DNA from: a virus
Strand: one strand, 5' to 3'
IMG/VR virus record: IMGVR_UViG_3300045988_129816
Length of the DNA: 42,653 nucleotides
A model generated the notes under the pieces. That model was not told the DNA's origin, did no database searches, and worked only from the letters and a program-made list of their open reading frames with translations. Positions within the stretch are counted from its first letter, which is position 1, and each line of letters starts with the position of its first letter. The position numbers and the translations under genes were made by a program. Positions 19,117 to 40,277 of the stretch are shown piece by piece.

Positions 19117-19359
19117 ATGAATAAAAATTTTACACCACCAAGTAAGAAACCTACGGAAAAAATTGAAGAAAAATTAAACATTGAACCGGACAGACATTTT
19201 GTAGTGGCATTACAAACCGGTCATTGTTTAGACTTCCACAATAAGTGCAGTTTTGTTAAGTTTGAAAGGAGATTAGCTTTTTTTCAAAATCAGAAAAAAG
19301 AAATCATATTAGCAATCCCAATAAGCAATATTAATTACATTTCATGTAAAGAAAATTAG
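19117..19359 (+). CDS. Hypothetical protein
   Basis: ORF, GAGGGA RBS. Confidence 0.35.
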   Translation: MNKNFTPPSKKPTEKIEEKLNIEPDRHFVVALQTGHCLDFHNKCSFVKFERRLAFFQNQKKEIILAIPISNINYISCKEN

Positions 19360-20358: not shown

Positions 20359-21186
20359 GTGGTACAAATGAAAAAATGTAAAGGCAAATATATTCAAAGA
20401 GAAAGAAGAATATATCACGGAGATTATTTAGACGTAAATATATTTCCTGTTTTTAAAAAGCCGGGTAAAAGAAAAAAGAAAACCAATCCATCATCTGAAA
20501 TACAGAAAAAGTTAAATCAAACTTACAGAGAAAATAAAGTGACATATTTAATCAACAATAATTTCTCAAAGAAAGATTTAGAGATTGGATTGGGATTTGA
20601 TGATGAACACCTACCTGAAACATATGCAGATGTACAGAGAATTATTCGTAATTATATCAGACGTATAAAACATTACATATCAAAAAATGATTTATCCGAA
20701 TTAAAATATTTGTATGTGATTGAACGTGGTGCAACTAATGGACGTTGGCACATACACATGATTTTAAGCGGCGGCATAGATAGAGATTTGTTGGAGGATA
20801 TGTGGGGACAAGGATATGCACATACTTACAGATTGGAATTTGATGATAATGGATTGAAAGGTTTGGCGAAGTATAAAGTTAAAGAGCCGACAACAGATAT
20901 TGAAGTCATAGATGAAAAAATACATAGATGGGCGGCGAGCAAGAATTTAAAAAAGCCGACCATTCCAAAAGACAGAGATGGATTTATAAGCAAAGATACC
21001 GTCCGAGATATTCGTAAGGGTGATATATGTGAACGAGAGATAGAGCGTTTATATCCCGGATATACAATTACAGATATAAGTCCATATTTGAATACAATTA
21101 ATGCAGGTGAATATTTAACTATTCGCTTGCGGAAAACGAAGAATAGCAGAGTTACAAAGGAGGTATTTTATAAATGCAGAAAATAA
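20359..21186 (+). CDS. HUH-endonuclease superfamily Rep-like replication initiation protein
   Basis: HUH motif GRWHIHMIL and candidate catalytic Tyr motif GLAKYKVKEP; upstream of VRR-NUC. Confidence 0.5.
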   Translation: MVQMKKCKGKYIQRERRIYHGDYLDVNIFPVFKKPGKRKKKTNPSSEIQKKLNQTYRENKVTYLINNNFSKKDLEIGLGFDDEHLPETYADVQRIIRNYIRRIKHYISKNDLSELKYLYVIERGATNGRWHIHMILSGGIDRDLLEDMWGQGYAHTYRLEFDDNGLKGLAKYKVKEPTTDIEVIDEKIHRWAASKNLKKPTIPKDRDGFISKDTVRDIRKGDICEREIERLYPGYTITDISPYLNTINAGEYLTIRLRKTKNSRVTKEVFYKCRK

Positions 21187-21629
21187 AGGCAAGCGACCTA
21201 CCGTGTCCGACTGAAAGTCAAGAGCAACAAACATTGTTCAGATTTTGTTCGGTGGAGTTATCTCGTTATCCCGAATTGGAAATGTTGGCACACATTCCAA
21301 ATGAGGGCAAGCGTACCAAGACAATGGGCGGCAGATTAAAAAAAGAGGGGTTGAGAAAAGGTTATCCCGATATTGTTTTGAATGTTTCAAGACAGGAGTA
21401 TCACGGATTATTCTTAGAGTTAAAGCGGAAACGTGGAAGTAAGATAACTAAGGAACAGAAAGAGTGGATAATAAAGTTGAACCGTCAAGGCAATGCTGCG
21501 GCATTCTGCTACGGTTGGGAACAGGCGTGGGAATTTATATACGCCTATTTAACGTGCGATAAATCTGACGGCAGTAAGAGTACAGTCAAAGATTATATTT
21601 CAAAAAGTTTAAAGGAGGCGGCGGAATGA
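21174..21629 (+). CDS. VRR-NUC domain nuclease
   Basis: ESQEQQTLFRF…HIPNEGKR…GYPDIVL…LELKRKRGSKITKEQKEW pattern of PF08774. Confidence 0.6.
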   Translation: MQKIKASDLPCPTESQEQQTLFRFCSVELSRYPELEMLAHIPNEGKRTKTMGGRLKKEGLRKGYPDIVLNVSRQEYHGLFLELKRKRGSKITKEQKEWIIKLNRQGNAAAFCYGWEQAWEFIYAYLTCDKSDGSKSTVKDYISKSLKEAAE

Positions 21630-21795: not shown

Positions 21796-22152
21796 ATGCA
21801 ACAAGATAACATAAAGGACTTTGCGATTGCGGCATTTCGCTATCGAGGGCATTTAAACGACACAGATATATTATCGCTTGAAGAAGTCTATATTAATATG
21901 GCGGTAACGTCAACCATTCGCCATTTGGAGATAGAGCGAGATTATATTGCAATAGAGGGCGTTAAGCGTGTTTACTATCAGTTACCGTTGGGAAACTTGA
22001 AACGTGGATTGCTTACCGAAAATACAAAGCGTGTAGCAATAGATATGCACATAGAAGAACGAACTCTATGGCGACATCTCGCAAGAGCGAGGAATATATT
22101 TAATTGTTATTATGAAAAGTTTACTGACACAAAATTGTCAGGAGTAACTTAA
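21796..22152 (+). CDS. ArpU-family / sigma-region-4-like late transcriptional regulator
   Basis: C-terminal EERTLWRHLARARNIF HTH; position immediately before terS. Confidence 0.55.
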   Translation: MQQDNIKDFAIAAFRYRGHLNDTDILSLEEVYINMAVTSTIRHLEIERDYIAIEGVKRVYYQLPLGNLKRGLLTENTKRVAIDMHIEERTLWRHLARARNIFNCYYEKFTDTKLSGVT

Positions 22153-22162
22153 TTTTTTATTA

Positions 22163-22200
22163 TATAATAGACCATGAACGATATGCCCGTATCGTTCATG
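22163..22200 (+). terminator. Strong rho-independent terminator
   Basis: CCATGAACGATA-tgcccg-TATCGTTCATGG followed by CTTTTTTC. Confidence 0.8.
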
Positions 22201-22204
22201 GCTT

Positions 22205-22574: not shown

Positions 22575-23084
22575 ATGGAAGTAAATCAAAAACAGCTTGC
22601 GGCACTACTTGGAATTTCGTCACGACAGGTCAGAAATTTAAAAGAACAAGGCTTATTTGAATTTGTTACCGACAGTCGAAAATATAACGCTGAAAAGTGT
22701 GTACAAGAGTACATAGATTTTAAGATAAAAGCGGAAGTCGGCAACGGGACAAATCTGCAAAAAGAAAAAGAGCAGGCAGAACACGAAAAATATAAAAAGG
22801 AAATCACAAAATTGAAGTTACGGAGGCTGCGAAAGGAAACGCATGAAGCAGGTGATGTAGAACAATTTTTGAATAATATGCTTATAGATTTCCGTAATCG
22901 TCTGTTATCAGTTCCGGCAAAAATCGCACCGATTGTTATAGGACAAACTGATATACATATAATCATTTCAGAATTGGAGAAAGAGTTGGAAATGACATTA
23001 GAGGAATTATCAAATTATGACCCTGATGTTATAAACGGAACAGAACCGATTGATTATGATGTCGAAACTGATGAAGAAGAATAA
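22575..23084 (+). CDS. terS: Terminase small subunit (HTH)
   Basis: N-terminal QKQLAALLGISSRQVRNLKEQG HTH, acidic C-terminus, immediately upstream of terL region. Confidence 0.6.
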   Translation: MEVNQKQLAALLGISSRQVRNLKEQGLFEFVTDSRKYNAEKCVQEYIDFKIKAEVGNGTNLQKEKEQAEHEKYKKEITKLKLRRLRKETHEAGDVEQFLNNMLIDFRNRLLSVPAKIAPIVIGQTDIHIIISELEKELEMTLEELSNYDPDVINGTEPIDYDVETDEEE

Positions 23085-23132: not shown

Positions 23133-23537
23133 ATGTCAAACGAAAAAAGTACAGATGAACAGAAAAAGATTGTAGAGGTTAAAAACGTGGCAACAGACAC
23201 AAAGAAGGTAGTTGATATTATTATCCCAGAGGAAGAAGAAAAGGTCGATAATATTATCAAATTATCGCAGACATACAATTTTGAGGGAGAGCATATCAGC
23301 GAGGTTGATTTAACCAATCTTGAAAATTTAAACGCACTGCAAATGCAAGATATTGAAAAACTATATCGCAAAATTGCAAAATCGGCTTCTTCTACACCGG
23401 AATTAACGATAGAATATGCAATGGCAACGGCATCAAAGCTAACGGATTTGCCATTGGAATTTTATCAAAGAATAAGCGGTAAGGATATAACCAAGATTAA
23501 AAATCGAATTATAAATTTTTTATACAGCGAGGATTAA
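23133..23537 (+). CDS. Acidic hypothetical protein
   Basis: AGGAGG RBS. Confidence 0.4.
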   Translation: MSNEKSTDEQKKIVEVKNVATDTKKVVDIIIPEEEEKVDNIIKLSQTYNFEGEHISEVDLTNLENLNALQMQDIEKLYRKIAKSASSTPELTIEYAMATASKLTDLPLEFYQRISGKDITKIKNRIINFLYSED

Positions 23538-23711
23538 CAGCGGAAAATATCAGAAAATTATGCGTAAATTTAGGCATGGCAACAAACACATCAATAGAAT
23601 TTATGTTTCAAAGACCGCAACAAGAATTATTGGATATAGCAGATGATTTGTCGGAAAGAGCCGAAAGGCTTGAACGACTACGAAAGCAAAGAAGATAGCG
23701 AGGGGCGGAAT

Positions 23712-25526
23712 ATGTCAAGTGAAAAATTGAGGTCAAGAGAAAAAACAAGAAAATTATTTATGAGGTGTATTCATAAATCATTATCTCGACCGGAAAGGCT
23801 GACAGTTTCGCAATGGGCGGAGAAATACCGTATATTGACGGATAACTCCGCTTTGCCGGGTCGTTGGAGCAATGCCATTACACCGTATTTGGTTGAAATA
23901 ATGGACAGTTTCAATGACCCGTATATCCAAAATATTAATTTTGTGAAATCAACGCAAGTCGGCGGTACAGAAACATTAATTAATGCGACAGGGTGGATTA
24001 TAACACAAAATCCATCGCCAACAATGATTGTGTATCCGAATGATGAATTAGCAAAAGACGTGTCGAACGACAAATTAAAACCGGCATACCAAAAAACGAG
24101 AGAAATCAAATCAAGATTTTTTCAAACAAAATCATCTGAAAAGAATTTGCGTTTCAGAGGTATGAATTTATATTTGCGTTCGGGTAATACTCCGGCTGCA
24201 TTGGCTTCTAAAGCGATAAAATATTTGTTTTTTGATGAAATTGACAAAATGGCAGGTGCTACGAAAAAAGAAGCAAATCCATATAATTTGGCGGTAGAGA
24301 GAACTAAAACATATGGATATAGCAAAAAAATCTATACTTGTAGCACTCCAACGCTGAAATCTAATTATATTTGGAGATTTCATGAGAGAGCAGAAGTACA
24401 AAAATATTATTTTGTACCGTGTCCGCATTGCGGTGAAATGATAATTTTAAAATGGCAGCAAGTTCGTTTTCAGAATGATGAAGATAATAAAATGACGATA
24501 GAAGAACGTGCAGAAACGGCAAGTTACTATTGTCAAGAATGCGGTGCAGAGATAACCGACAGTGAAAAACGTGCGATTATTCGCCAAGGTGAATGGCGAG
24601 ATATGAAAAAAACGTGCAGAGAAAAACCAACGAGCGTAAGTTTTCATATTAATGCGTTATATTCATTTTTTGTATCGTGGAAAGATATAGCACTTGAATT
24701 TTTACGAAGCAAAGACGACCCGGAAGAATTACAGAATTTTATCAATTCGTGGTTGGCTGAACCGTGGGAAGATACCACGGTAAAGACAAGTGAAGAATTA
24801 GTTATGCAAAGGCAGGCGGAAGAACCGCAAGGGGTAGTACCTGATTGGGCGGTTATGCTTACGGCAGGTGTGGACGTACAAGAAACATCTGTATATTATG
24901 ACATTGTTGCTTGGGGTGCAGAGTGGACAAGTCAATCAATTATACATGGACAGTTATTATCATTGAACGATTTGGAAATGTATATGAATGCCGAGTATAA
25001 AAATTCTTCGGGCGAACAATTCTATGTTAATCTATGTTTAATCGACAGTGGCGACCAAACAACAGAGATATACGCATTTTGTTTGCGGCACGAGTGGGCG
25101 ATACCCGTTAAGGGTATAGATGGCGGTAACAATCATTATAGGGTAACAAAAATAAACCGTAAGGGTGCAGAATATGACGGGCAACAGTTGATATTGGTTG
25201 ACGGTGGCAAGTACAAAGATAGTATCGCAAGGCGATTGCAAAAAGAGAATGGTATTGGTTCTTGTATGGTTCATGCAGATTGTGATTTGGAATACGCAAA
25301 GCAATTAACAGCAGAGCATAAAGTGGCAGAGGGTTCAGGACAAAGGCGGCGATTAGTTTGGCGACCAAAAGTAAGTCACGGTGACAACCATTTTACGGAT
25401 TGTAGAGTATATGCGTCAGCGGCGGCGGATATTTGCGGTGTAAGAACTATCGGATTGTATGATGCGAACGAAGATGCGGCGGAAGAAACACCACATAAAA
25501 AATCAAGTTGGATAAACGGATATTAG
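23712..25526 (+). CDS. terL: Terminase large subunit, lambda GpA-like
   Basis: GpA-family co-linearity (…RWSNAITPYLVEIMDS…VKSTQVGGTE…), internal zinc ribbon CPHCGE…CQECGAE; start at ATG 23712 behind GAGGGGCGGAAT RBS. Confidence 0.8.
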   Translation: MSSEKLRSREKTRKLFMRCIHKSLSRPERLTVSQWAEKYRILTDNSALPGRWSNAITPYLVEIMDSFNDPYIQNINFVKSTQVGGTETLINATGWIITQNPSPTMIVYPNDELAKDVSNDKLKPAYQKTREIKSRFFQTKSSEKNLRFRGMNLYLRSGNTPAALASKAIKYLFFDEIDKMAGATKKEANPYNLAVERTKTYGYSKKIYTCSTPTLKSNYIWRFHERAEVQKYYFVPCPHCGEMIILKWQQVRFQNDEDNKMTIEERAETASYYCQECGAEITDSEKRAIIRQGEWRDMKKTCREKPTSVSFHINALYSFFVSWKDIALEFLRSKDDPEELQNFINSWLAEPWEDTTVKTSEELVMQRQAEEPQGVVPDWAVMLTAGVDVQETSVYYDIVAWGAEWTSQSIIHGQLLSLNDLEMYMNAEYKNSSGEQFYVNLCLIDSGDQTTEIYAFCLRHEWAIPVKGIDGGNNHYRVTKINRKGAEYDGQQLILVDGGKYKDSIARRLQKENGIGSCMVHADCDLEYAKQLTAEHKVAEGSGQRRRLVWRPKVSHGDNHFTDCRVYASAAADICGVRTIGLYDANEDAAEETPHKKSSWINGY

Positions 25527-25537
25527 GAGGCGGAAAG

Positions 25538-26680
25538 ATGTCAATATTGGATAGTATTCCTGATATATCATTCATTGGTGATATATCGGTTGAAAAATTA
25601 AAAGAGATTGGTATAAATGAATATAAATCCGCCTTGTCGGAAATCACAAGCGAAACAGTTACGCAAATAAGTGATGAAGATAAAGCAAAAATATATGCAC
25701 AGGCACAGATTATGTATCAAGTAGCAGAGATTATTAATAATCGAGCAAGGCAAAATTCGTTGAAATATGCAAGCGGAGCATATCTTGACAATAAAGCAAT
25801 AAGCCGATTATTACAACGAAAACAAGAAGAATATGCAGTGACAACAATACGATTTACATTATCGGCGGTCAGAGAAAATGTTATTGCTATTCCTGTCGGG
25901 ACAAGAGTTACCGGAGAAAGCGGAAACGTTTATTTTGCAACAAGCGAATATGCGGAAATACTTCCGGGAAATTTGTATGTTGACGTTTTATGTACTGCAA
26001 CAGACGGCGGCAGTGCTGCAAATAATTATGAAATCGGGGAACTTTCGACATTAGTAGACCCGATAGCATACATTGATAACGTAAAAAATATTGACAATCC
26101 GTTAGGCGGTGCAGATGTAGAAGATGATGATACACTTCGAGAACGTATATATAATTCACGTTATTTATACAGTACAACAGGTTCGGAGGGTGCATACATC
26201 TATTATGTCAAATCGTATTCTTCGTTGATTGATGATGTGGTTATTGATAATCCATCAGATGCGGAAATTGAAATTTATATATTGCTGAAAGACAGAGATT
26301 TAGCAACTGAAAGTTTTATTGAGGGACTTTCAGAATATATAAATAATCCCGATATAAAGGCAATCACAGACCATATAACAATAAAAAATGTGGAACGTGT
26401 TGAATATAGTATTGATGTTGAATATAGCATTTGTAATTCAGATATATCGGCATTAAATATTATACAACAAGATGTTAAAAGCAACATATACGAATATACA
26501 GAATGGCAAAGCCAAAAAATCGGCAGAGATATTGATATTCAAAAACTAATATCATATATCATTCAAGCAGGTGGACGAAAAATCAGAGTAAATTCTCCGT
26601 CTGTAAAAACCATAACAAATACGCAAATTGCGTACTGTACAGGTGTTAATATCACTTACAAAGGTACAGTTGAAGAATAG
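25538..26680 (+). CDS. Baseplate J-like protein (P2 gpJ / XkdT family)
   Basis: GGADVEDDDTLRERIYNS…GSEGAYIYY, …VERVEYSID…, …IGRDIDIQKL… co-linear with P2 gpJ from memory. Confidence 0.65.
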   Translation: MSILDSIPDISFIGDISVEKLKEIGINEYKSALSEITSETVTQISDEDKAKIYAQAQIMYQVAEIINNRARQNSLKYASGAYLDNKAISRLLQRKQEEYAVTTIRFTLSAVRENVIAIPVGTRVTGESGNVYFATSEYAEILPGNLYVDVLCTATDGGSAANNYEIGELSTLVDPIAYIDNVKNIDNPLGGADVEDDDTLRERIYNSRYLYSTTGSEGAYIYYVKSYSSLIDDVVIDNPSDAEIEIYILLKDRDLATESFIEGLSEYINNPDIKAITDHITIKNVERVEYSIDVEYSICNSDISALNIIQQDVKSNIYEYTEWQSQKIGRDIDIQKLISYIIQAGGRKIRVNSPSVKTITNTQIAYCTGVNITYKGTVEE

Positions 26681-26751
26681 AATACAAACGGGCAACTTTT
26701 AGATTATGTTTATAATCTTTAATTTGCCTGTTTTTTTATGGAGGGGTATAA

Positions 26752-26970
26752 ATGACAGATAAAGAGCAAGAATTGGTAGAGATAAAAAAGGCAATATCTA
26801 AAATTTTAAATGGCGGACAATCATATAGGATTGGAAACCGAACAATGACAAGAGCAGATTTAAAAACTCTGTACGATATGCAGACCAAAGTTGAGAACGA
26901 AATCGCCGAGAGTGAAAAAGGCGGCATACTCGGACGAAACGCATCGGCAGCGGTTTTTGATAGAAGGTAG
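26752..26970 (+). CDS. Lambda gpW-like head-tail joining protein
   Basis: About 70 aa; pattern MTxxExEL…G…R…L…GG…A…F resembling lambda W. Confidence 0.45.
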   Translation: MTDKEQELVEIKKAISKILNGGQSYRIGNRTMTRADLKTLYDMQTKVENEIAESEKGGILGRNASAAVFDRR

Positions 26971-26974
26971 AGAG

Positions 26975-27187
26975 ATGTTATATACGACAAAACAAGGCGA
27001 TACATGGGATAAAATCGCATATGAACAGTATAACAATGAAGAATTGATAAAGACGTTATTAACTGCAAATCCGCAGTATATTGACATAGCCGTTTTTGAT
27101 TATGGTGTAGTTTTAGAAATACCGACTATATCAAAAACTGATGATGAAATATTCTTACCACCGTGGAGGAAAAATAATGAGTTATGA
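26975..27187 (+). CDS. Tail protein X-like (LysM-like, P2 gpX / XkdP-type)
   Basis: YTTKQGDTWDKIAYEQY…LLTANPQY…GVVLEIP LysM-like pattern. Confidence 0.5.
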   Translation: MLYTTKQGDTWDKIAYEQYNNEELIKTLLTANPQYIDIAVFDYGVVLEIPTISKTDDEIFLPPWRKNNEL

Positions 27188-28202
27188 TTTTGTAAATGCT
27201 CCTCGCAGAGCCTTGGCGAAAATTGAAATACAAGGTAGCACAGTGTGGGGCGGTATCAGTTCATACAACCGAGATTTAACATTTACAGAAGTCGCAAGCG
27301 GTGAAACCGACAGCTTGGATATAAAACTTCACGATTGCGATAACCATTGGTTAAATGATTGGTTAATCGATAAAGGTACACGACTTTTGGCAAGAATTGA
27401 ATTGGAAAATTGGGATAAACAGAATGAATATCGCACAATAGATTGTGGTGAATTTATATGCGATAGCATAAAAGTAACAGGCTATCCGATAGAAGTTGTA
27501 ATTCGTTCTATTTCAATTCCCATAAACGGTACGAAAAATACGAAAAAGTGGGAAAAAGTTTCAGTCAGTGCCATAGCACAAGATATATGCAACCATTTAG
27601 GGGTAGGTTTGGAGTATTATGCCGATAGCATTGTTATTAAATCTCAAACGCAATCGCAGCAGACAGATATAGATTTTTTATTTAAAGTATGTCAAGAGTA
27701 TGGATTTGGAATGAAAGTGTATAAAAATAAAATCATTATTTTTGATAGGGCAAAACAAGACGAAGCGGAAAGTGTCGGCAGTTTTGAAGTGGGGGCTATT
27801 TCTGAAAGTTTTGAATTGTCCGACAATGAGGAGGGTTTTTATACCGGAGTGAAAATGAAGTATAAAAACGAGGGTGAAGATACTGAAAGGGAGTATATAT
27901 ACGGCGAAAAAGAAAAAATGCTGACACCAAGTACAACCGCATCGTCAATACAAGAGGCACAAATAAAAAGTAAAGCAGCGTTGTATAATGCAAATTCCAC
28001 AGCTATTAAATTAAAAATGAACTGTATGGGAGGTACGCCGATATATCCCGGCTCAAATTATTATTTTTCAGGATTAGGAAAATATAGCGGGAAATATGGT
28101 GTAGACAAGGCAACACATTATATTGATGAAAATGATTTTTATACAATTTCGGTAGAGGCACACGCAATAAATCTTGAAAAAGACGATGCGGCGGCAGATT
28201 GA
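27177..28202 (+). CDS. Late-control gpD / XkdQ-like baseplate hub protein
   Basis: DSLDIKLHDCDNHW, …SVSAIAQDICNHLGV…, …SQTQSQQTDIDFLFKVCQEYGFGMKVYKNKIIIF co-linear with P2 gpD from memory. Confidence 0.6.
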   Translation: MSYDFVNAPRRALAKIEIQGSTVWGGISSYNRDLTFTEVASGETDSLDIKLHDCDNHWLNDWLIDKGTRLLARIELENWDKQNEYRTIDCGEFICDSIKVTGYPIEVVIRSISIPINGTKNTKKWEKVSVSAIAQDICNHLGVGLEYYADSIVIKSQTQSQQTDIDFLFKVCQEYGFGMKVYKNKIIIFDRAKQDEAESVGSFEVGAISESFELSDNEEGFYTGVKMKYKNEGEDTEREYIYGEKEKMLTPSTTASSIQEAQIKSKAALYNANSTAIKLKMNCMGGTPIYPGSNYYFSGLGKYSGKYGVDKATHYIDENDFYTISVEAHAINLEKDDAAAD

Positions 28203-28286
28203 AAATGACGAGGAAAAGAAAACCGTAGGTAACTATGTTATGGGTTATATAGACGGTAAATATATGATAATTCGGAGGCGGAATAT

Positions 28287-29738
28287 ATGGGTTTTATAGA
28301 GAAAATCTCGCCCAAATGGGCGTATAAACGAGAGGCTTGGCGACAGGCGAATGAAATTCAAAAGAGAAATTATGATGCCGGAATGTATGACAGACAAAAT
28401 CGAAATTGGTTTGCACATAATGAGAGTGGTGAACAAACCGATAAATATTTTAGAGGAACTGTACGTGCGAGGAGCAGAGACCTCGAACGAAATAGCGATT
28501 TAATGAATGCCAACATACACCCGTGGGTAAGGAATGTAGTCGGTAAGGGGTACACCCTTGAGGCTAAAACAGACGATGAGGAATTTAACGATAATATTGA
28601 AAAGCTATGGGTAAAATGGTGCAAAAAAGATAATTGTGACGTAACAGGTTCACAGTCATTTTGGGAAATGGCACGAATGGCAATCAGACGAAAACGTGTA
28701 GACGGCGGTATTTTGTTTATAAAATGCTATACAAGGGGCGGCATAGTTCCGTTTAAATTACAAGCGTTAGAGGTTGACGAATTGGACGAAGTTCAATCAA
28801 AACCGAATTATGAGGGCGATAAGGTCGTTGGCGGTATCGAATATAACAGCTATAACAAGGCTGTCGGATATTGGATAAAAGAATATGACATTGAGGGTTA
28901 TTTAAAGCCTGTAAGTAGGTTTGTTGAAAGAAAAAACGTGATTTTTTATTTCTCTAAGACACGTCCATCTCAAATACGAGAAATGCCCGAAATGTCAGCG
29001 ACAATCGGAAGAATAAAAGAAGTAAACGGCTATATCGAGGCGGCAACCATCAAAGAAAGAATTGCAGCTTGTCTATCGGTATTTATAAAAAAGGAATTAC
29101 CGACAGGCGGTATAGGTCGTACAAACACGGTAAAGGGAAATCGAAAGTATGATGATTTGGAACTGACACCGGGTTTAATTACCGATTTGAATGCCGGTGA
29201 CGATATTCAAGTTGTAAATCCGGGTAATTCAGCTACAAACGGCAGCGACTTTATAAAAACAACTCAACGTTTAATTTCGGCAGGGCAAGGCATAAGCTAC
29301 GAGTCAACATCACGAGATTTGAGTAGTGCAAATTATTCATCTGCAAGGCAGGCGACAATCGAAGATGAAGAAACGTTTACACCCGAAGTTCAAAAATTAC
29401 AAGATGAATTTTTGGACGAAACATACGAAACATTTGTTATATCGGCAGTTTTATCGGGTGCAATTCAATGCCCTGATTTTTGGACAAATAAAGAAAAATA
29501 CTTAGAACACGAATGGAACAGAAAACCGAAAAAGTGGATAGACCCTCAAAAAGAGGCTAATGCAAATAAAATTGCTATCACAACGGGGCAGAAAACTCTA
29601 AATGATATTTGGAGGGAAGACGGAAAAGACTTCAAAACTGTTCTTGACGATATGAAAAAAATTGAGGAATATGCAAATCAAATCGGACTTGATTTGAACT
29701 TTCCTTACTTGAAAGGAGGTGGGGAAAATGCAAAATGA
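28287..29738 (+). CDS. Portal protein, lambda gpB type
   Basis: RARSRDLERNSDLMNANIHPWVRNVVGKGYTLEA matches the lambda-B portal signature. Confidence 0.75.
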   Translation: MGFIEKISPKWAYKREAWRQANEIQKRNYDAGMYDRQNRNWFAHNESGEQTDKYFRGTVRARSRDLERNSDLMNANIHPWVRNVVGKGYTLEAKTDDEEFNDNIEKLWVKWCKKDNCDVTGSQSFWEMARMAIRRKRVDGGILFIKCYTRGGIVPFKLQALEVDELDEVQSKPNYEGDKVVGGIEYNSYNKAVGYWIKEYDIEGYLKPVSRFVERKNVIFYFSKTRPSQIREMPEMSATIGRIKEVNGYIEAATIKERIAACLSVFIKKELPTGGIGRTNTVKGNRKYDDLELTPGLITDLNAGDDIQVVNPGNSATNGSDFIKTTQRLISAGQGISYESTSRDLSSANYSSARQATIEDEETFTPEVQKLQDEFLDETYETFVISAVLSGAIQCPDFWTNKEKYLEHEWNRKPKKWIDPQKEANANKIAITTGQKTLNDIWREDGKDFKTVLDDMKKIEEYANQIGLDLNFPYLKGGGENAK

Positions 29739-30327
29739 AAGATTTAAGGGTATGCAAACCCGAGAAATGCAGCTAAGCGGAATTAGAGTGCTGAATGAAG
29801 ATGATAGAACTGTTGAGTTATCTTTTTCTTCCGAAACACCTATTGAGCGTTGGGGAGCATTTGAGGTGTTGTCGCATACCAAAAGTGCGGTACAGTTGAA
29901 CAGAATATTGACAACAGGCTGTTTATTATATAACCATAACCGAGATACCGTTATTGGTAAGATATGCTCGGCGAAAGTCGAAAATAAGCGAGGCGTTGCG
30001 GTAGTTCAATTTGATGAAGATGAAAAAAGCGATATTATTTTTCAAAAAGTCAAAAATGGTTCATTGAGAGGTGTGTCGGTGGGATATACAATTCAAGACT
30101 ATAAAAAAGACGTAACCGGGCAGGGAGAGGCACGACAAGTTACCTATACTGCAACAAAATGGGAACCGTATGAAATATCTATTGTTTCTGTTCCGGCAGA
30201 CATATCTGTTGGAGTCGGGAGAAGTATGGAAGATGACATAACCCAAAAATCAAACATAAGAATGTTTGAAAACCAAATTAAACTAAATGAAAATTTATTA
30301 ATGGAGGAGGCAAAATCAGATGCTTAA
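29728..30327 (+). CDS. Prohead protease (HK97 family)
   Basis: LLYNHNRDTVIGKI (His) and VSVGY (Ser) motifs; AGGAGG RBS before ATG 29728. Confidence 0.6.
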   Translation: MQNERFKGMQTREMQLSGIRVLNEDDRTVELSFSSETPIERWGAFEVLSHTKSAVQLNRILTTGCLLYNHNRDTVIGKICSAKVENKRGVAVVQFDEDEKSDIIFQKVKNGSLRGVSVGYTIQDYKKDVTGQGEARQVTYTATKWEPYEISIVSVPADISVGVGRSMEDDITQKSNIRMFENQIKLNENLLMEEAKSDA

Positions 30328-31831
30328 AAAGTTAATTGCGATGCAAAAAAGAATAATGGACACCGCTAAGGCGGAAAAAAGAGAACTAAATGAAGGCGAA
30401 CAACGTGAATTTAATTTATTGCAGAGTTTGATTGACAACATTCGTTCAGAAGAAAATAACGGTCAAGGAAACGCAGAACCAACAGAAAATCAAGGCGAAC
30501 AACCAACAGAACCTGAAGGTGCAAGACAGTTTGATACCGGATATTCTGCTAATGATGCCGCACAAATCACATCATTGTGTAGAAGTTTTAACGTAGATGC
30601 CACGGAATATCTTCAAAAAGGTATGTCGTTAGATAGCGTAAGAGCGGCAATAATTGATGAATTGATGAACCGTCAAAAACCTGTAAGCAGTCATATGCAG
30701 GTTACAGATGATGAGGGTGACAAATTCAGACGAGCAGCGACAGACGGTATTTTGTTGCGTTACGGAGTAAGTGTACAAAATCCGTCAGAGGGTTCAAACA
30801 TTTACAACGGTGTAACAATCCGTGAAATTGCCATTGAGTGCTTGGAGCGTGAACACGGTGGACAAGATTTTAGACATATGAATATCGAAGATATTTATAG
30901 CCATTGTTATAGAGAATTTTATAATCCTACATCGGCATTCCCGTCAATACTTGACGATGTTGTAAAAAAATCATATGTTGCAGGATTACAGAAACAAAAG
31001 ACACAGTTTGATAAATGGGTAGGCGTGGGTTCGTTACCGAACTTCAAAAAGACAACAAATCATGAATATTTAATGTCACTTGGCGGTGAACTTGAACAGG
31101 TCAAAGAAAACGGCGAATTGCCGGCATATACACCGGTTGATGTTCCAATGCCTGAACGTCAGCTAAAGACATATGGTCGTCAATTCACAATGACCCGTGA
31201 GGCATTTATTAATGATGATATTGGACTATTGACAACAATGCCGCAAAGATATGCTGCTCTATCTGCAAATACTCAAAATAAACTTGTGTATCAAATCTTG
31301 ACACAAAATAAGAAGATTTATGACGGTAAAGTATTATTCAGTGCCGAAAGAGGCAATACACTTCAAAAGGGTACAAAGCCAACGATAGAGTCCATCGAAA
31401 GAATGATTTATCTGTTGGGAATGCAAAAAGATGAGGCAGGCGACCAACTTATGCTTATGCCGGATTTGTTTATTGTTCCGTTGGGTATGGGAACAGACCT
31501 AAGAACAATTCTATATTCACCTACTATACATACACCGGAAAACACACAAGCCGTAAATCCGTATTTGGGAATGAATTTCACTGTTGTTGAAGATACAACA
31601 TTGAATGCACAGGTGAAAGCCGGAAATCCTGTACCTTGGTTTATGGGCGTCAAGGGCGAAACTATCCAAATTGATTATCTAAACGGTCAAAAAGAGGCTA
31701 CAATCCGCAGGTCTGAACAGGCAGGTAAATTGGGATTTGTATGGGATGTATATCACGATTTCGGTATAACTGTAAAACACCCTCAAACAATAATCAGAAA
31801 TCCGGGTGTAGTGATAGATATGAGTGAATAA
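30320..31831 (+). CDS. Major capsid protein (HK97 fold) with N-terminal coiled-coil delta/scaffold region
   Basis: Position after protease, N-terminal coiled coil, length, HK97-like C-terminal region. Confidence 0.65.
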   Translation: MLKKLIAMQKRIMDTAKAEKRELNEGEQREFNLLQSLIDNIRSEENNGQGNAEPTENQGEQPTEPEGARQFDTGYSANDAAQITSLCRSFNVDATEYLQKGMSLDSVRAAIIDELMNRQKPVSSHMQVTDDEGDKFRRAATDGILLRYGVSVQNPSEGSNIYNGVTIREIAIECLEREHGGQDFRHMNIEDIYSHCYREFYNPTSAFPSILDDVVKKSYVAGLQKQKTQFDKWVGVGSLPNFKKTTNHEYLMSLGGELEQVKENGELPAYTPVDVPMPERQLKTYGRQFTMTREAFINDDIGLLTTMPQRYAALSANTQNKLVYQILTQNKKIYDGKVLFSAERGNTLQKGTKPTIESIERMIYLLGMQKDEAGDQLMLMPDLFIVPLGMGTDLRTILYSPTIHTPENTQAVNPYLGMNFTVVEDTTLNAQVKAGNPVPWFMGVKGETIQIDYLNGQKEATIRRSEQAGKLGFVWDVYHDFGITVKHPQTIIRNPGVVIDMSE

Positions 31832-31833
31832 TC

Positions 31834-32223
31834 ATGATAGGTTATTGGGGATATTTGCAGTTTGAAACCAATGACGATTGGTTACAGTATCCATCCGACA
31901 TAGAACGTACCGTCAAAGGGCGGTACGCTACGTTCTATCCAGGTGACGGCAGCAGAGCAAAGCGACAATTCAAAGGAGCAGAAACAGGTACACTCACATT
32001 TACAATGTATTTAGACCAACGTTTTAACTCAAATCTGCGAGATTTGTTGGCGGAGATGGCAGATTGGGTTAATACAGGTGTAGCAGGTGAATTGGTTATA
32101 GGTAATCGTTCTTACGGATATAATATGTGGGTTTGTACCAAAATGGTTGAAAAGTTCAAAGAAGTAATACACGGCGGTATTATTACGAGAGCAGAAGTAG
32201 AAGTCACATTGGAGGAGTGCTGA
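31834..32223 (+). CDS. Hypothetical head-module protein
   Basis: ORF in structural operon. Confidence 0.4.
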   Translation: MIGYWGYLQFETNDDWLQYPSDIERTVKGRYATFYPGDGSRAKRQFKGAETGTLTFTMYLDQRFNSNLRDLLAEMADWVNTGVAGELVIGNRSYGYNMWVCTKMVEKFKEVIHGGIITRAEVEVTLEEC

Positions 32224-32511
32224 ATGTTCACTGTTGATTTATCTGTTGAAAAAACTCAAATGACATCTGATGAAGTGTCATTATTGCAAAAAAATATTGC
32301 ATTTTGGTTAAACACCCCGAGGGGAAGTCTACCGCAAATGCGTGATTTCGGATTGAATTATGATGTTATAGACGAACCACTTCAAACATTTAAAATGAAA
32401 ATAACTGTTGATACAATTAGCAAAGTGCGTGATTTATACGGGGTGAAAATAAAAACAATCAATGTAACTGCCGATGAAAACGGCAAAGCAACTTTAAAAA
32501 TAACGATATGA
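32224..32511 (+). CDS. gp25-like baseplate wedge protein (P2 gpW / GPW_gp25 family)
   Basis: IAFWLNTPRGSLPQMRDFGLNYDVIDEP and C-terminal NGKATLKITI co-linear with P2 gpW. Confidence 0.55.
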   Translation: MFTVDLSVEKTQMTSDEVSLLQKNIAFWLNTPRGSLPQMRDFGLNYDVIDEPLQTFKMKITVDTISKVRDLYGVKIKTINVTADENGKATLKITI

Positions 32512-32524: not shown

Positions 32525-32851
32525 ATGAAAGCTACATATGTGCAAAAAGGCGAAAATATCAATTATAAAAATCCGACAGAGGATAAAATAACACTCGGCA
32601 CACTGATTATAATTGGTGCGATATGTGCCGTTGCAGCAGATGATATTGAACCGGGCGAAATCGGAACTGTTGCAACTACAGGTTCTTGGAACATTCCAAA
32701 GGATAACACAGCAATAGAAATCGGTGATAAAGTCTATTACGACAGTGAAAATGATGTTGCAACAAAGACCGCTAAAGACAATGTTATAGGTTATGCAATC
32801 GAAAGTGCAGATGCCGAAAGTTCTACCGTAAAAGTTAAATTGAATGGTTGA
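32525..32851 (+). CDS. DUF2190-family head-associated protein
   Basis: Pattern …PGEIGTVATTGSW…AIEIGDKVYYD…VKVKLNG typical of DUF2190. Confidence 0.5.
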   Translation: MKATYVQKGENINYKNPTEDKITLGTLIIIGAICAVAADDIEPGEIGTVATTGSWNIPKDNTAIEIGDKVYYDSENDVATKTAKDNVIGYAIESADAESSTVKVKLNG

Positions 32852-32855
32852 TAAT

Positions 32856-33191
32856 ATGGATTTCAAGGAAATATTGCAAGATGATATTAACAATGCGTTT
32901 TTGGATAGTTCGGAATTTGCAGAAGTGCATAACGTGAACGGTCAAGAAGTTAATATTGTTATTGATGACAATGTGACTGACGGAACAGAAACAGGAATAT
33001 ACGGAATATCTCAAAAAATTGATGATGGATTGTACAAGGGAGATAAGGTCATTTATATCTCGACAGAAGATACCAAAAGACCTCCGCCCGGCAATATGTT
33101 AGTATTGGATAATATCAGATATACCATTGTTTCAACGACCGAACAATGCGGAATGTACATGGTCGTAATCAGGAAAATAGGCGTGAGGTAA
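32856..33191 (+). CDS. Head closure / head-tail adaptor-like protein
   Basis: Size, position and C-terminal beta pattern. Confidence 0.35.
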   Translation: MDFKEILQDDINNAFLDSSEFAEVHNVNGQEVNIVIDDNVTDGTETGIYGISQKIDDGLYKGDKVIYISTEDTKRPPPGNMLVLDNIRYTIVSTTEQCGMYMVVIRKIGVR

Positions 33192-33196
33192 AGACA

Positions 33197-33733
33197 ATGG
33201 AAGTAGTAGTTCTTGTTGAAGTTGATGAGGCATTACAATATGCCCGTCAAAAGTTGGGTGCAATGCAAAAGAAAGCACCGCAAGCGGTGAGAACCGCATT
33301 GAATAAAACTGCACGAGAGGCAAAAAAACAAGATGAAAGAATAACCAAACAGACATATACCGCCAAGGGTGATATACATTCATTGCAATTCAAAAAGGCT
33401 ACAACGGCTAATTTGCAAGCAATTTTAAAGGATAAAGGTTCTAATATATCAATGTCACATTTCAGAACGTATGTCGGCAAAAAAAGAATTTCTGCGGTGA
33501 TTAATACAAAACACGGTAGAAGAAACCTCGGCAAATACGGAAATAAAGCATTTTTTTGGAATACAATATTCGTTCGTGAGGGGCAATCAAGATTGCCGAT
33601 TGAAAAAATGGCATCTATATCATCTCCGGTTATGCACGGTAACGATAATACTTGGGGAACAATCGAAGATGATGTAAGAAGCAAGTTATATGAAAACATT
33701 GATAAAGAAATTGAAAGGATATTAGGATTATGA
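33197..33733 (+). CDS. HK97 gp10-like head-tail joining protein
   Basis: Size and position; weak pattern match. Confidence 0.4.
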   Translation: MEVVVLVEVDEALQYARQKLGAMQKKAPQAVRTALNKTAREAKKQDERITKQTYTAKGDIHSLQFKKATTANLQAILKDKGSNISMSHFRTYVGKKRISAVINTKHGRRNLGKYGNKAFFWNTIFVREGQSRLPIEKMASISSPVMHGNDNTWGTIEDDVRSKLYENIDKEIERILGL

Positions 33734-34206
33734 CGGAAGTTGATTTGCAAAAAGAAATACGAAAAATCATAGTTCAAGAATTAATACCCGATATGAAAAT
33801 TTTTGAGCCGAATACATTTAAAGGATTTCTTCAAGATATACCACTTGACCTTGGTTACGGTGATGAAACTGAAATTGTTGATAAAAACGTTCCGTGCTGC
33901 ATTGTAAAAATAAATGCAGGGGAAATAAACGGAGCAAGTAAACCCGAAACAGTTACGGTTGAAATAATCATTGTAATAAAAGATGAAAGCGAAGATATGT
34001 CGGGTTATCAGACGTTGATGGTGGTTATCAATCGTATACGAGATTATTTTACTGCAAATGTTGGCATTCAAAACAAATATCGTATGAAATATCCGATAAA
34101 GTGGGGTATTAATGATAATACCATAGCACCGTATTTTGTAGGTAATTTGATTACACAATGGGATATTGAGCGTATGCCATTTCATGACATTGCAAGGTTT
34201 TTGTAA
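33730..34206 (+). CDS. Neck / tail-terminator-like hypothetical protein
   Basis: Position before sheath. Confidence 0.3.
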   Translation: MTEVDLQKEIRKIIVQELIPDMKIFEPNTFKGFLQDIPLDLGYGDETEIVDKNVPCCIVKINAGEINGASKPETVTVEIIIVIKDESEDMSGYQTLMVVINRIRDYFTANVGIQNKYRMKYPIKWGINDNTIAPYFVGNLITQWDIERMPFHDIARFL

Positions 34207-34221
34207 TAAGGAGGTTAAAAC

Positions 34222-34572
34222 ATGGCAAGAACGAAGAAAGTAGATACTGAAACGACCGTTCAAGAAACAGTATCGGAAGAAATAACAGAAGTTTCCGCAG
34301 TTGAAAATTCAAATGAAGCGGCGGAAAGTCAGGACAAGCCTGAACAAAAAGACGGACAAAAAATATATATAGGAGTATCAGTACCGGGAATGAAATCGGG
34401 AACGGTATTCACAGGGAAAATTCCGAAAGTGATAGATGTAGATTTTGTACGTGAATTATGTGTGCCAGTTAACAAATTAAGTGAAACGCTGAAAAAGAAA
34501 GCTGTTACCGGAAGTCGTGTAGCATACTGCTATCAGCAATCGGCAAAGTTGGCACAGCAACTAAAGAAATAG
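34222..34572 (+). CDS. Hypothetical protein with acidic, disordered N-terminus
   Basis: AGGAGG RBS. Confidence 0.4.
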   Translation: MARTKKVDTETTVQETVSEEITEVSAVENSNEAAESQDKPEQKDGQKIYIGVSVPGMKSGTVFTGKIPKVIDVDFVRELCVPVNKLSETLKKKAVTGSRVAYCYQQSAKLAQQLKK

Positions 34573-34586
34573 GAGGTTAAAATAAT

Positions 34587-36014
34587 ATGGCATATTTACA
34601 CGGAGTATATCCGACAGAAAAAAGCAAAACGGCGGTATCACTATCGACCACTACACAAGTACAAGTGGTTATCGGTACAGCACCGATACATATGTTAGAC
34701 AATCCGTCAGAGGCGGTTAATAAGCCTATACTTTGCGAAAGCAAAGAGGATTGCTATAAAAAGATTGGTTATTCAACCGATTTTTCAAAGTACACATTGT
34801 GTCAATCAATGTTTGCATCGTTCTTTAAAATAGGAGTTGCACCTGTTGTGTTTATAAATGTCTTAGACCCGGAAAAGCACAACAAAGAAGTAACGGACAA
34901 AGAATTTGTTGTACAGGATAATTCGATTTTGATTGACGATGCAGTTATTTTGTCAACGTTAAAATTAACGGCGGCAAGCAATACAATTTCTCACGAAGAT
35001 TATGTGACCGAGTGGGTAGATGAAAAGCTATCGATTATTTTCAAGAATAAAATCGAGGGCAATGTTACGGCAACATACAAGAGCATTGCACCCGAAAAGG
35101 TTACAGAAAATGATATTATCGGTTCATATGATACTGAAACGGGAGTAAGAACGGGTACAGAGTTAATTAAAATGGTGTATCCGATGTATGGCGTAATTCC
35201 GTTTGTGCTTATTGCACCGGGTTGGACAGAAACAGATACCGTTGGTGCGGTTTTAGAACAGAAAACCGAAGAAATCAACGGCTGTTTCAAAGGCATTACC
35301 ATTATAGATTTGGACAGTCAAACAAGCAAAACACGTTCAGCAGTTATAAAAGATAAACAAGCACGAACAGTAAATGCCAACACAATAGCCGTTTATCCAA
35401 AGATAAAAAAGGACGGATATGTATTATCATATTCTGCGTGGTTGGCTGCAATTATAATGAAACAGGCAACGGAAAATGAAGGCGTTTTCTGCAAGTCACC
35501 ATCTAATATCAATATTGATATTGACGATTGTATCACCGCAGACGGTACAAGAGTTTTGTATGATGGCGAAGATGGAAACGAATTGAACGGTGAGGGTATT
35601 GTAACAATCATTGCCCGAAACGGTTGGTATACATGGGGTAATAATACGGCGGTATATCCCGAAATTACCGACACTAAAAGCCGTTGGATAATGGCACGTT
35701 TGGCATTTGCATTTGTTGAAAATGAATTTATAATGTCAAAAATTCAGACCATAGATACAGAATTGTCACCGAAAAACATTGAAAACGCAGTAACCGAAGA
35801 AAATATCAGACTTGCTGCATTAACGGCAGGCGGATATATTTTGGGCGGTACAATGTTATACGACAAGGCAGATAATTCAAATGATTCTATCCTAAACGGA
35901 CAGTTTAAATTCAGAACGCAAATTGCTACAAACATTCCGACAGAAGTTATAGAAAATACGTTTGAATTTGATGCGGAAACCGTGCAAAACGCAATATTAG
36001 GAGGTGAGCAGTAA
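34587..36014 (+). CDS. Contractile tail sheath protein
   Basis: 475 aa; XkdK/Mu-gpL-like sheath pattern; followed by tube. Confidence 0.7.
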   Translation: MAYLHGVYPTEKSKTAVSLSTTTQVQVVIGTAPIHMLDNPSEAVNKPILCESKEDCYKKIGYSTDFSKYTLCQSMFASFFKIGVAPVVFINVLDPEKHNKEVTDKEFVVQDNSILIDDAVILSTLKLTAASNTISHEDYVTEWVDEKLSIIFKNKIEGNVTATYKSIAPEKVTENDIIGSYDTETGVRTGTELIKMVYPMYGVIPFVLIAPGWTETDTVGAVLEQKTEEINGCFKGITIIDLDSQTSKTRSAVIKDKQARTVNANTIAVYPKIKKDGYVLSYSAWLAAIIMKQATENEGVFCKSPSNINIDIDDCITADGTRVLYDGEDGNELNGEGIVTIIARNGWYTWGNNTAVYPEITDTKSRWIMARLAFAFVENEFIMSKIQTIDTELSPKNIENAVTEENIRLAALTAGGYILGGTMLYDKADNSNDSILNGQFKFRTQIATNIPTEVIENTFEFDAETVQNAILGGEQ

Positions 36015-36529
36015 TGGCAACAACAACCATTCCAACACAAATTATTGATTTCAATATATATAACGGACAAAACAAATTAATGGGTACAGGTGATGAAGTT
36101 ACTTTGCCGAAAATTGTCAGTAAAGCATATACGGCGGCATTGGCAGGGGGAGATATTGACCTGCCGGGTTTAACTACGGAAAATATGGAAATGGAAGTGC
36201 CGTTTAATGTATTTGACAAAGAGGTTGCAAGTATAATGAGCATTTCTAAGGTAAATACATTAATAGTTCGTAGTTGTGAGCAGAAAGCGGACACAAAGAC
36301 ACACAATCTGTCTTATGACGGTATAAAAGTAACCGTTCGTGGTTTTACCAAAGAAGTTGATTTAGGAACATTAAAACGTTCCGACAAGATGGATAGTAAA
36401 ATCACAATGACATTAACGTACATAAAAGTTGAAGATAGTTCAACGGTATTCCTTGAAATTGACAAATTCAACGGAACATTTATTGTCAACGGAAAAGATG
36501 TCAGAGAGGGAATAAACAAGTACCTATAA
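36014..36529 (+). CDS. Tail tube protein (XkdM/Mu gpM-like)
   Basis: 171 aa directly after sheath. Confidence 0.6.
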   Translation: MATTTIPTQIIDFNIYNGQNKLMGTGDEVTLPKIVSKAYTAALAGGDIDLPGLTTENMEMEVPFNVFDKEVASIMSISKVNTLIVRSCEQKADTKTHNLSYDGIKVTVRGFTKEVDLGTLKRSDKMDSKITMTLTYIKVEDSSTVFLEIDKFNGTFIVNGKDVREGINKYL

Positions 36530-36554
36530 TGATGCAACGATTGCGGAGGCTACT

Positions 36555-40259: not shown

Positions 40260-40277
40260 ATGAAAGAGGTGGCAACC

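Follow-up and report, generated by a model that had tools for sequence, protein, structure and literature searches.

Tail-morphogenesis genes interleaved with packaging and head genes in Epona-like temperate myophages of gut Clostridia

The stretch of DNA analysed here (IMG/VR record IMGVR_UViG_3300045988_129816, 42,653 nucleotides; hereafter the window) is the complete circular genome (42,554 bp) of a temperate myophage, its circular assembly being marked by a 99-bp terminal overlap. Among known phages, Faecalibacterium phage FP_Epona is the nearest to it. The late genes form a co-oriented string with the order TerS-chaperone-TerL-J-W(lambda-like)-X-D-portal-protease-MCP-U-W(gp25-like)-deco...sheath-tube-TMP-V-I-H, where MCP is the major capsid protein and TMP the tape measure (Table 1). 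All core baseplate families of the P2/Mu type (X, D hub, V spike, U, gp25/W, J and I) were found in the window; these, with a LysM-type X and with H, are the families of P2, Mu and R-type pyocins. However, the baseplate genes are not contiguous with the sheath, tube and TMP genes. Instead, six tail genes are displaced in four blocks (chaperone; J; X and D; U and gp25-like W), which occupy the slots TerS|TerL, TerL|W, W|portal and MCP|decoration.

The original prediction, made from the sequence alone, had placed inner-baseplate genes amid the packaging and head genes: J between TerL and a lambda-W-like gene, X and D between that gene and the portal, and a gp25-like wedge gene among head genes, with only V-, I- and H-like genes after the TMP. 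The order read from the window bears this out at every position, and all four family calls (J, X, D and gp25-like) hold in Pfam and phrog profile searches and by hhalign. The extent of the displacement was under-counted, as gpU and the tail assembly chaperone had been missed. A search for additional baseplate genes across the circular join found none, and scanning the genome with Rfam and for tRNAs gave no hit.

Table 1. Features of the late structural region, with positions in the window and the matches on which assignments are based
Feature	Position	Strand	Match or remark
Strong terminator-like hairpin with T-run, upstream of TerS	22172-22201		
TerS	22575-23084	+	phrog_57 5.2e-34; first gene of late structural operon
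Tail assembly chaperone, lambda G/GT or P2 E/E' type	23133-23698	+	phrog_3140 6.1e-19; displaced block 1
TerL, lambda gpA type	23712-25526 (likely start)	+	Pfam GpA_ATPase 1.6e-67, GpA_nuclease 3.5e-68
J, baseplate wedge (P2 gpJ, Mu gp47, pyocin Tri1)	25538-26680	+	Pfam Baseplate_J 2.9e-35, phrog_6 1.9e-55; displaced block 2
Extended stem-loop then T7, J-to-W spacer	26686-26737	+	
Small head-tail adaptor, lambda gpW position	26752-26970	+	phrog_118 'head-tail adaptor' 1.3e-14; resident head gene
X, LysM-type tail protein	26975-27187	+	Pfam Phage_tail_X 1.5e-08, phrog_46 1.2e-17; displaced block 3
D, baseplate hub	27177-28202	+	phrog_52 8.8e-56; displaced block 3
Portal, lambda-family	28287-29738	+	Phage_portal_2 3.2e-88
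S78 prohead protease	29719-30327	+	Peptidase_S78 6.6e-12
MCP	30320-31831	+	Phage_capsid_4 4.4e-32
U, P2 gpU family	31834-32223	+	Pfam Phage_P2_GpU 1.5e-12, phrog_76; displaced block 4
gp25/P2-gpW-like sheath initiator	32224-32511	+	phrog_43 2.6e-11; displaced block 4
Cement/decoration protein	32525-32851	+	Phage_cement_2 3.2e-24
Head closure	32844-33191	+	
Neck	33146-33733	+	
Tail completion	33730-34206	+	
Unknown gene	34222-34572	+	
Sheath	34587-36014	+	
Tube	36014-36529	+	Phage_tube 6.9e-30
TMP	36555-40259	+	Epona TMP N-terminus, tblastn match at 36549-37811
V spike	40260-40658	+	weaker evidence: phrog ~1e-4; Epona gp52 tblastn 2.6e-9
I	40662-41408	+	Tail_P2_I 1.6e-13
H-like fibre gene	41414-42439	+	

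Each displaced gene is single-copy, full-length and co-oriented with the late gene string, within which its spacing is only 0-11 nt or an overlap. J starts 11 nt past the TerL stop and has its own ribosome-binding site (GGAGG), X and D overlap by 11 nt, U begins 2 nt past the MCP stop, and the gp25-like gene follows directly after the U stop. J and D match solved pyocin R2 baseplate chains: J matched Tri1a PA0618 (PDB 6u5b_m, 8.9e-15), and the profile of D homologues matched chain 6u5h_C over its full length (8.9e-10). With D, U or the gp25-like protein as single-sequence queries, PDB searches returned no significant match. The gp25-like protein aligned by hhalign with canonical-order homologues that themselves match Pfam GPW_gp25 (96% probability, E 1.5e-9), its profile match to T4 gp25 was marginal (E 0.035), and its single-sequence AF2 model was poor (pLDDT 48). 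D of the window species is without the C-terminal extension of ~80-110 aa found in other clade members; an exact-protein look-up of its 353-aa ORF gave no match, the longest ORF probably not having the start that was called elsewhere. Displaced genes with sufficient substitutions had pN/pS of 0-0.35, while within-species values for J, X and the lambda-like W are uninformative because substitutions were too few.

The displaced chaperone matched Epona gp48 (tblastn, 2.8e-22). Its zero-frame ORF (23133-23537) carries near its 3' end a slippery heptamer of the X_XXY_YYZ type, T_TTT_TTA (23516-23522), followed by a -1 frame extension of 58 aa that ends at a TAG stop (23696-23698). The signal and the conserved extension are also present in 11 further scrambled-order and 6 canonical-order loci, and the slippery site TTTTTTN and the extension are kept in every displaced chaperone checked; a programmed -1 frameshift is predicted from these two features. 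TerL, whose longest ORF begins at 23643, is likely to start at the ATG at 23712, past the chaperone extension. The ancestral place of the chaperone is between tube and TMP, as is usual for lambda G/GT and P2 E/E', between the tube (major tail) and TMP genes. In contrast, the window gene is placed between TerS and TerL, with ~13 kb separating it from the TMP gene downstream, and the 25-nt spacer between tube and TMP contains no ORF and no chaperone gene.

The remaining genes have stayed in place. The adaptor at the lambda W position matched Epona gp36 (Ad1; tblastn, 3.8e-13) and had no significant gpW match in Pfam, only a sub-threshold DUF6148; in canonical relatives a small adaptor likewise lies between TerL and portal, a lambda-like position. 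Genes across 32525-36529 keep their ancestral order, and besides cement and tube their assignments are based on phrog_2551, phrog_27, phrog_2581 and phrog_23 (1.6e-58). From the TMP onward, where TMP, spike V, wedge I and fibre H have not moved, the phrog matches are phrog_9992, phrog_6142 and phrog_7037. The TMP also has a full-length 60% match to that of a diverged clade member (L096).

How does this order compare with that of known phages? FP_Epona (Eponavirus epona, NC_047910), Dulem virus 34 (PP511788) and MT835543 share the packaging-to-baseplate gene set of the window one-to-one: lambda-type TerL, W-position adaptor, lambda-type portal, S78 protease and cement, and also sheath, tube, a chaperone with a predicted frameshift, TMP, X, D, V, U, W, J, I and fibre. 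Proteins of the window and Epona are 26-56% identical, X and D correspond to Epona gp50 and gp51 (tblastn), and these three phages are the best phage-collection matches for both J and portal. The whole structural module is homologous, but genus-level nucleotide similarity is absent and the gene order differs. Megablast of the region against GenBank phages, including the Epona-like ones, gave no nucleotide-level match. The Epona group has the canonical order TerS-TerL-W(lambda-like)-portal-protease-MCP-deco...sheath-tube-chaperone-TMP-X-D-V-U-W-J-I-H, with chaperone to I contiguous 3' of the tube, whereas the window is scrambled by the four blocks. The ancestral place of X and D is thus immediately 3' of the TMP, and that of U and the gp25-like W between V and J.

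In Mu and the pyocins the baseplate genes form one unbroken run with the tail genes. In P2, X comes after the head gene L, V-W-J-I-H-G before the sheath, and U-D after T; the claim that P2, Mu and PBSX-like phages all keep these genes contiguous is therefore slightly too strong for P2, whose X is apart from D. We know of no baseplate genes between the terminase, portal and capsid genes of P2, Mu or the pyocins. T4-like phages have dispersed baseplate genes, some near head genes. However, T4 is large and lytic and has many separate late promoters, whereas the window phage is small and temperate with a single co-oriented late string, and it is scrambled gene by gene, unlike the dispersed baseplate clusters of T4.

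The scrambled order is not confined to the window. Its exact junction sequences recur in 8-9 contigs of IMG/VR, which come from five or more metagenomes and represent strains collinear with the window at 97-99% nucleotide identity, and the TMP-V-I-H order in 9 further contigs. The full scrambled order also occurs in ~15 diverged lineages (J 47-57% identical), drawn from ENA, Logan, IMG/VR and GTDB genomes, with an isolate assembly and a MAG contig of 105 kb among them. Relatives integrated as prophages occur in MAGs of Monoglobus and Ca. Ornithomonoglobus, in 'Lachnospiraceae bacterium MD329' and in other Clostridia. In an NJ tree, 41 J clusters group as a single clade, between whose members MCP is 51-78% and J 49-73% identical with the order unchanged. 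All of the >80 loci outside it are canonical (chaperone-TMP-X-D-V-U-W-J-I). The GenBank phage collection searched contains no member of the clade, and we found no description in literature searched for this gene order, Eponavirus genomics, Monoglobus prophages or displaced chaperones.

The original prediction had offered a genuinely rearranged mosaic, a mis-assembly or a second use of the proteins. Recurrence among many independently made assemblies and throughout a deeply diverged clade supports the first as far as 'genuinely rearranged' goes. 'Mosaic' is misleading: head and displaced genes share their nearest known relatives, FP_Epona and Dulem virus 34, and co-diverge (pairwise identities co-vary with rho 0.91 across 8 genomes of the scrambled clade), and therefore point to an intragenomic reshuffle of one module, not a patchwork. 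We consider it very probable that the rearrangement of gene order is genuine, arose once and has been inherited vertically in Epona-like temperate myophages of gut Clostridia with lambda-type packaging.

To reach this order, the six tail-morphogenesis genes would have quit their ancestral places around the TMP gene in at least four block moves or at least three rounds of duplication and loss. The likeliest path would be stepwise: tail genes of the phage itself would have been duplicated into permissive intergenic slots of the moron type, and after each such insertion the original would have been lost, so that one working copy would always be kept. No intermediate between the scrambled and canonical orders was seen to support this path, the >80 loci outside the clade being all canonical. 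A search for repeats bordering the displaced blocks, as footprints of recombination or mis-assembly, also found none. A single tandem-duplication/random-loss event was rejected as the origin, as the permutation comprises 5 increasing runs and therefore requires at least three such rounds. Three or more rounds are no more parsimonious than four block moves.

What do the displaced proteins do? Single-copy, intact, co-oriented, tightly packed and co-diverging with the head, their genes most likely still encode builders of the baseplate. They would remain co-transcribed in one late operon, and their products would assemble in trans into an ordinary P2/Mu/pyocin-type baseplate; with co-expression kept, gene order would be dispensable for function. 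A consensus promoter scan did not exceed shuffle background and yielded no usable internal promoter.

The hairpin after J bears on whether this operon is uniform. Its free energy is -19.4 kcal/mol (z -4.3; matched by none of 200 shuffles), and it resembles an intrinsic terminator, an attenuator or an RNA-stability element. Of 13 clade members, 10 carry a comparable hairpin plus T-run at the J|W junction, and the Epona TerL-W spacer is without one, so the element is specific to the scrambled clade and could subdivide the operon.

Such an element would fit a reading in which the interleaving is adaptive and maintained by selection, not a neutral accident, as either a dosage/timing programme or a recombinational 'module lock'. 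In the dosage version, the hairpin or attenuator would split low-output TerS, chaperone, TerL and J from high-output head genes, and the hub and initiator proteins would be produced together with the head proteins. In the lock version, essential baseplate genes would be lost whenever the head module was exchanged with a phage of canonical order, which would be lethal; head and tail would therefore be forced to co-evolve and the clade would be genetically isolated. The constancy of the order despite deep divergence, the co-divergence of head and displaced genes (within the scrambled clade only) and the conserved hairpin all argue for selection. However, neutral fixation with vertical descent predicts stability and co-divergence equally, two members (L018 and L107) keep the order without the hairpin, and the distance from the hairpin to the W ribosome-binding site is too short for a promoter. 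We regard an adaptive origin of this stability as unlikely.

Much less probable still is a second use, in which the relocated proteins would have head or packaging roles and V, I and H alone would form a reduced baseplate. Only the position among packaging and head genes points this way. A genome that encodes sheath, tube, TMP and spike needs a baseplate, and no sheath/tube/TMP tail is known to do without hub, sheath initiator and wedge J. Each displaced gene occurs once in a complete genome, family signatures and full-length matches to solved pyocin baseplate proteins are retained, and the chaperone keeps the predicted G/GT-type frameshift, whose role in TMP and tube assembly has been described (PMC5009743). 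A second use is therefore unsupported. Finally, although the window, with its 99-bp overlap, is a circular contig of the short-read kind and metagenome assemblers can mis-join repeats, mis-assembly or chimerism is refuted to the point of being negligible by blocks without flanking repeats, seamless coding junctions with ribosome-binding sites, identical junctions across many independent contigs and samples, and an order shared by ~50%-identical proteins in different projects' assemblies, including an isolate genome.

The virion gene order of tailed phages (terminase, portal, protease, capsid, connectors, tail, chaperone, TMP, baseplate, fibres) is regarded as among their most conserved features, and genes that cannot be recognised are routinely annotated from it; for example, the two ORFs that precede the TMP are called 'the chaperone'. 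The scrambled clade breaks this order at four places, and has kept the break through deep divergence and in the guts of several animals. The break is real, inherited and stable in the clade. Assembly would not need adjacent genes for interacting proteins such as chaperone and TMP, W and J, J and I, or X, D and TMP, and synteny-based annotation and module-based phage classification would mislabel such genomes. The scrambled and canonical sister groups provide a system for testing why gene order is conserved, whether through co-adapted modules, recombination or expression order. If selection does maintain the interleaving, the clade would be a natural experiment on gene order versus virion assembly, including that of a G/GT-type chaperone acting on a TMP encoded 13 kb away.

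The nearest GenBank phages to the window, for J and portal alike, are FP_Epona, Dulem virus 34 and MT835543, in which the window's genes are found one-to-one; the window phage is Epona-like. By tblastn, Epona proteins each had exactly one match in the window. The synteny comparison showed that the order in these three phages is canonical (TerS-TerL-(hyp)-W-portal-protease-MCP-deco-...-sheath-tube-chaperone-TMP-X-D-V-U-W-J-I-fibre), whereas the window has a scrambled order: TerS-[chaperone]-TerL-[J]-W-[X-D]-portal-protease-MCP-[U-W]-deco-...-sheath-tube-TMP-V-I-H (displaced blocks in brackets; the displaced W is a gp25/P2-W-like protein, the resident W a lambda-W-position head-tail adaptor). 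Identity to Epona was 26-41% for displaced genes and 27-56% for resident genes. As these ranges are similar, the displaced genes were not imported from another type of phage. Canonical-order FP_Epona (locus L001, 24383-25537) and locus L019 (19637-20755) have a reverse transcriptase just 3' of the fibre genes, which may be part of a diversity-generating retroelement; none was seen in the window.

The original prediction, made from the window sequence alone, had placed baseplate genes among the head genes. Profile searches bore out each of its family calls (Baseplate_J, phrog_118, Phage_tail_X, phrog_52 and phrog_43), and its statement that only gpV-, gpI- and gpH-like genes follow the tape measure gene: V, I and an H-like fibre gene alone lie 3' of TMP. 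The interleaving was correct, but the count was too low, as gpU, directly between MCP and the gp25-like gene, and the tail assembly chaperone had been overlooked. Since these are also displaced, the rearrangement totals six tail genes in four blocks. For the gp25/P2-W-like protein, the hhalign targets were canonical-order homologues matching Pfam GPW_gp25. The slot between tail completion and sheath holds a 116-aa ORF; in the MD329-like relative L013 the same slot (18915-19202) holds an unrelated gene matching Pfam Cpn10 (GroES-like).

Features of the window, with the evidence for each assignment
Feature	Position	Evidence
Terminal direct repeat	1-99 and 42555-42653	exact, 99 bp
ORF across circle join	42408 to 141	~95 aa
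Early region	11181-16744	
Rolling-circle-type replication initiator	20359-21186	
VRR-NUC-like nuclease	21174-21629	
Hairpin and promoter-like site 5' of TerS	22135-22202	perfect 13-bp stem
TerS	from 22575	
Tail assembly chaperone	23133-23537	Epona gp48 tblastn 2.8e-22; phrog_3140 6.1e-19
Slippery heptamer T_TTT_TTA	23516-23522	
TerL, lambda gpA type	23643/23712-25526	profile search
J	25538-26680	Baseplate_J 2.9e-35; pyocin R2 Tri1a PA0618 8.9e-15
J-W hairpin and T-run	26686-26737	-19.4 kcal/mol, z -4.3
Small head-tail adaptor, lambda-W position	26752-26970	phrog_118 1.3e-14
X	26975-27187	Phage_tail_X 1.5e-08
D	27177-28202	phrog_52 8.8e-56; profile versus pyocin R2 6u5h_C, full length, 8.9e-10
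Lambda-type portal, S78 protease, MCP	28287-31831	profile search
gpU	31834-32223	Phage_P2_GpU 1.5e-12
gp25/P2-W-like protein	32224-32511	phrog_43 2.6e-11; hhalign 96%, E 1.5e-9
ORF between tail completion and sheath	34222-34572	116 aa
TMP	36555-40259	

The chaperone ORF sits between TerS and TerL. Its -1 slippery heptamer is followed by a 58-aa -1 extension, which ends at 23698 and runs into the annotated start region of the longest TerL ORF (start 23643); the real TerL start is probably the ATG at 23712, just past the extension, rather than 23643. The tube-TMP gap is only 25 nt and TMP aligned with its relatives from residue 1, and therefore there is no chaperone at the usual site. A slippery site (TTTTTTN, or AAATTTT/GGGTTTT) and a conserved extension motif (RGL..RKLC.NL...T.TS.EF) were found in all 11 further displaced chaperones and in the 6 canonical ones examined.

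The protein search returned the window's own species, a cluster with 344 member sequences, at 99% identity and then, after a gap, relatives at 47-57%. Every inspectable relative in the latter range, drawn from ENA, Logan, IMG/VR and GTDB (loci L013-L018, L020/L096, L021, L106-L115 and L122), had the scrambled order. All four displacements were present wherever the contigs extended far enough, and L096 had TMP-V-I-H as well. The genome records give as hosts Monoglobus and Ca. Ornithomonoglobus MAGs, the isolate 'Lachnospiraceae bacterium MD329' and other Clostridia, and the samples came from human (Hadza), rabbit and chicken guts; the GenBank phage collection searched contained no member of this clade. 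In a neighbour-joining tree the 41 J clusters with at least 46% identity to the window were monophyletic, with J identities of 44-99.7% inside the clade and at most 47.5% to sequences outside. Outside the clade, more than 80 loci showed tube-chap-TMP-X-D-V-U-W-J-I wherever flanks permitted, and no partial arrangement was seen among these or the scrambled relatives. Thus, the scrambled order is a clade-wide trait with a single origin.

The spacer between J and the lambda-W-like gene contains an extended hairpin and T-run, present in 10 of 13 clade members (the window, L013, L016, L096, L106, L109, L111, L112, L113 and L122) and absent from the spacer of Epona. Its base is conserved (ACGGGC/GCCCGT) and its interior variable. 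Its role may be that of an attenuator, of an element for RNA stability, or of a moron-type terminator brought with the J insertion; it is inessential to the arrangement, because L018 and L107 lack it and retain the order. In L114 (Monoglobus sp. MAG; 2549-2933), a 383-nt GC-rich insert, which may be an extra small gene, occupies the J-W slot where others carry the hairpin, and suggests that this slot tolerates insertions.

Mean pairwise identities of head and displaced genes were correlated across eight diverged genomes (Spearman rho 0.91; the pairs are non-independent, and a p-value is not meaningful), and three sister pairs recurred in every gene. This co-divergence, the stability of the order and the hairpin all fit an adaptive order, whether it would programme dosage or timing or serve as a recombinational 'module lock'. 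The data are compatible with such an advantage but do not require it, as neutral fixation covers the same facts.

Judged from their sequences, the displaced genes are functional: each occurs only once in the complete genome, alongside genes for sheath, tube, TMP and spike. Within the species, pN/pS was 0 for the chaperone (12 synonymous and 0 non-synonymous changes), 0.08 for both D and U, and 0.35 for the gp25-like gene, while changes in J and X were too few for judging. A second use of these proteins, which the original prediction had allowed for, would, if head-related, be in keeping with their gene position, but was not borne out, being contradicted by the single copies and the retained family features.

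The hub protein D (27177-28287 with the spacer after it) is shorter in the window's species, at 341 aa, than in the rest of the clade (369-457 aa) or in canonical relatives (417-432 aa). The C-terminal extension is missing, and an 84-nt non-coding spacer follows. The D/portal junction differs among strains, and an exact probe matched just 4 loci. Between the window and the near-identical strains L098-L105 (otherwise 97-99% identical; 36014-40259), TMP was 83-98% and tube 92-100% identical in amino acids, with steadier neighbours (V 95-99%, sheath ~99%), which suggests local recombination or diversifying change in TMP and tube.

The exact terminal repeat shows that the window is a circular assembly and that the phage genome, at 42,554 bp, is complete. 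Probes of 40 bases spanning the TerL/J, J/spacer, W/X, D/spacer and MCP/U junctions had exact matches in 4-9 IMG/VR contigs from at least 5 metagenomes. These contigs aligned collinearly with the window (97-99% nucleotide identity) and are separate strains, because their upstream early genes differ; nine further contigs had the TMP-V-I-H order. The junctions are tight coding junctions carrying ribosome-binding sites (spacers: TerL-J 11 nt, W-X 4 nt, MCP-U 2 nt, U-W and TMP-V 0 nt; X/D overlap 11 nt), and no repeats flanking the displaced blocks were found. Mis-assembly is therefore refuted by identical junctions in independent contigs, the lack of flanking repeats and the same order in a diverged clade, and the genuine rearrangement that had been proposed alongside it is established.

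With the canonical order numbered 1-23, the window reads 1,14,2,21,3,16,17,4,5,6,19,20,7-13,15,18,22,23. This permutation has five increasing runs and needs at least four block transpositions or at least three duplication-and-loss rounds. The least disruptive path would be one in which the phage duplicated its own tail genes into permissive sites between other genes and then lost the original copies; in the TerL/W slot, Epona has an unrelated small gene and L114 the insert. No intermediates are known.

The genome also has a minus-strand serine-recombinase integrase, and lysogeny and replication genes. The early region has genes for a large helicase-methyltransferase fusion (844 aa), a processivity factor resembling sliding clamps and another DNA methyltransferase, of 550 aa; the replication initiator and nuclease lie 5' of the late operon. 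tRNA and Rfam scans of the genome gave no matches. The late genes form a single long co-oriented string beginning at TerS and continuing beyond the circle join with fibre, unknown and lysis genes. Just upstream of TerS is a strong hairpin that is terminator-like on both strands, with an adjoining promoter-like site. The early/replication genes probably end and the late operon probably begins here, and the site could lie near cos, given the lambda-type terminase.

The displaced proteins are ordinary members of the P2, Mu and pyocin baseplate families; the feature is real, and its novelty lies in the order, not the proteins. P2 keeps X apart from D and has its tail genes split into blocks, and T4 has dispersed baseplate clusters. 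No small temperate myophage is known to us in which baseplate genes and a frameshifting chaperone are interleaved singly among terminase, portal and capsid genes, and literature searches for such an order found none. As the structural genes are one co-oriented, tightly packed string with a strong terminator-like hairpin and a promoter-like site only 5' of TerS, their co-expression is presumably kept. The proteins would come together in trans as an ordinary baseplate, and the G/GT-type chaperone, a class whose role has been described (PMC5009743), would act on a TMP whose gene lies 13 kb further downstream.
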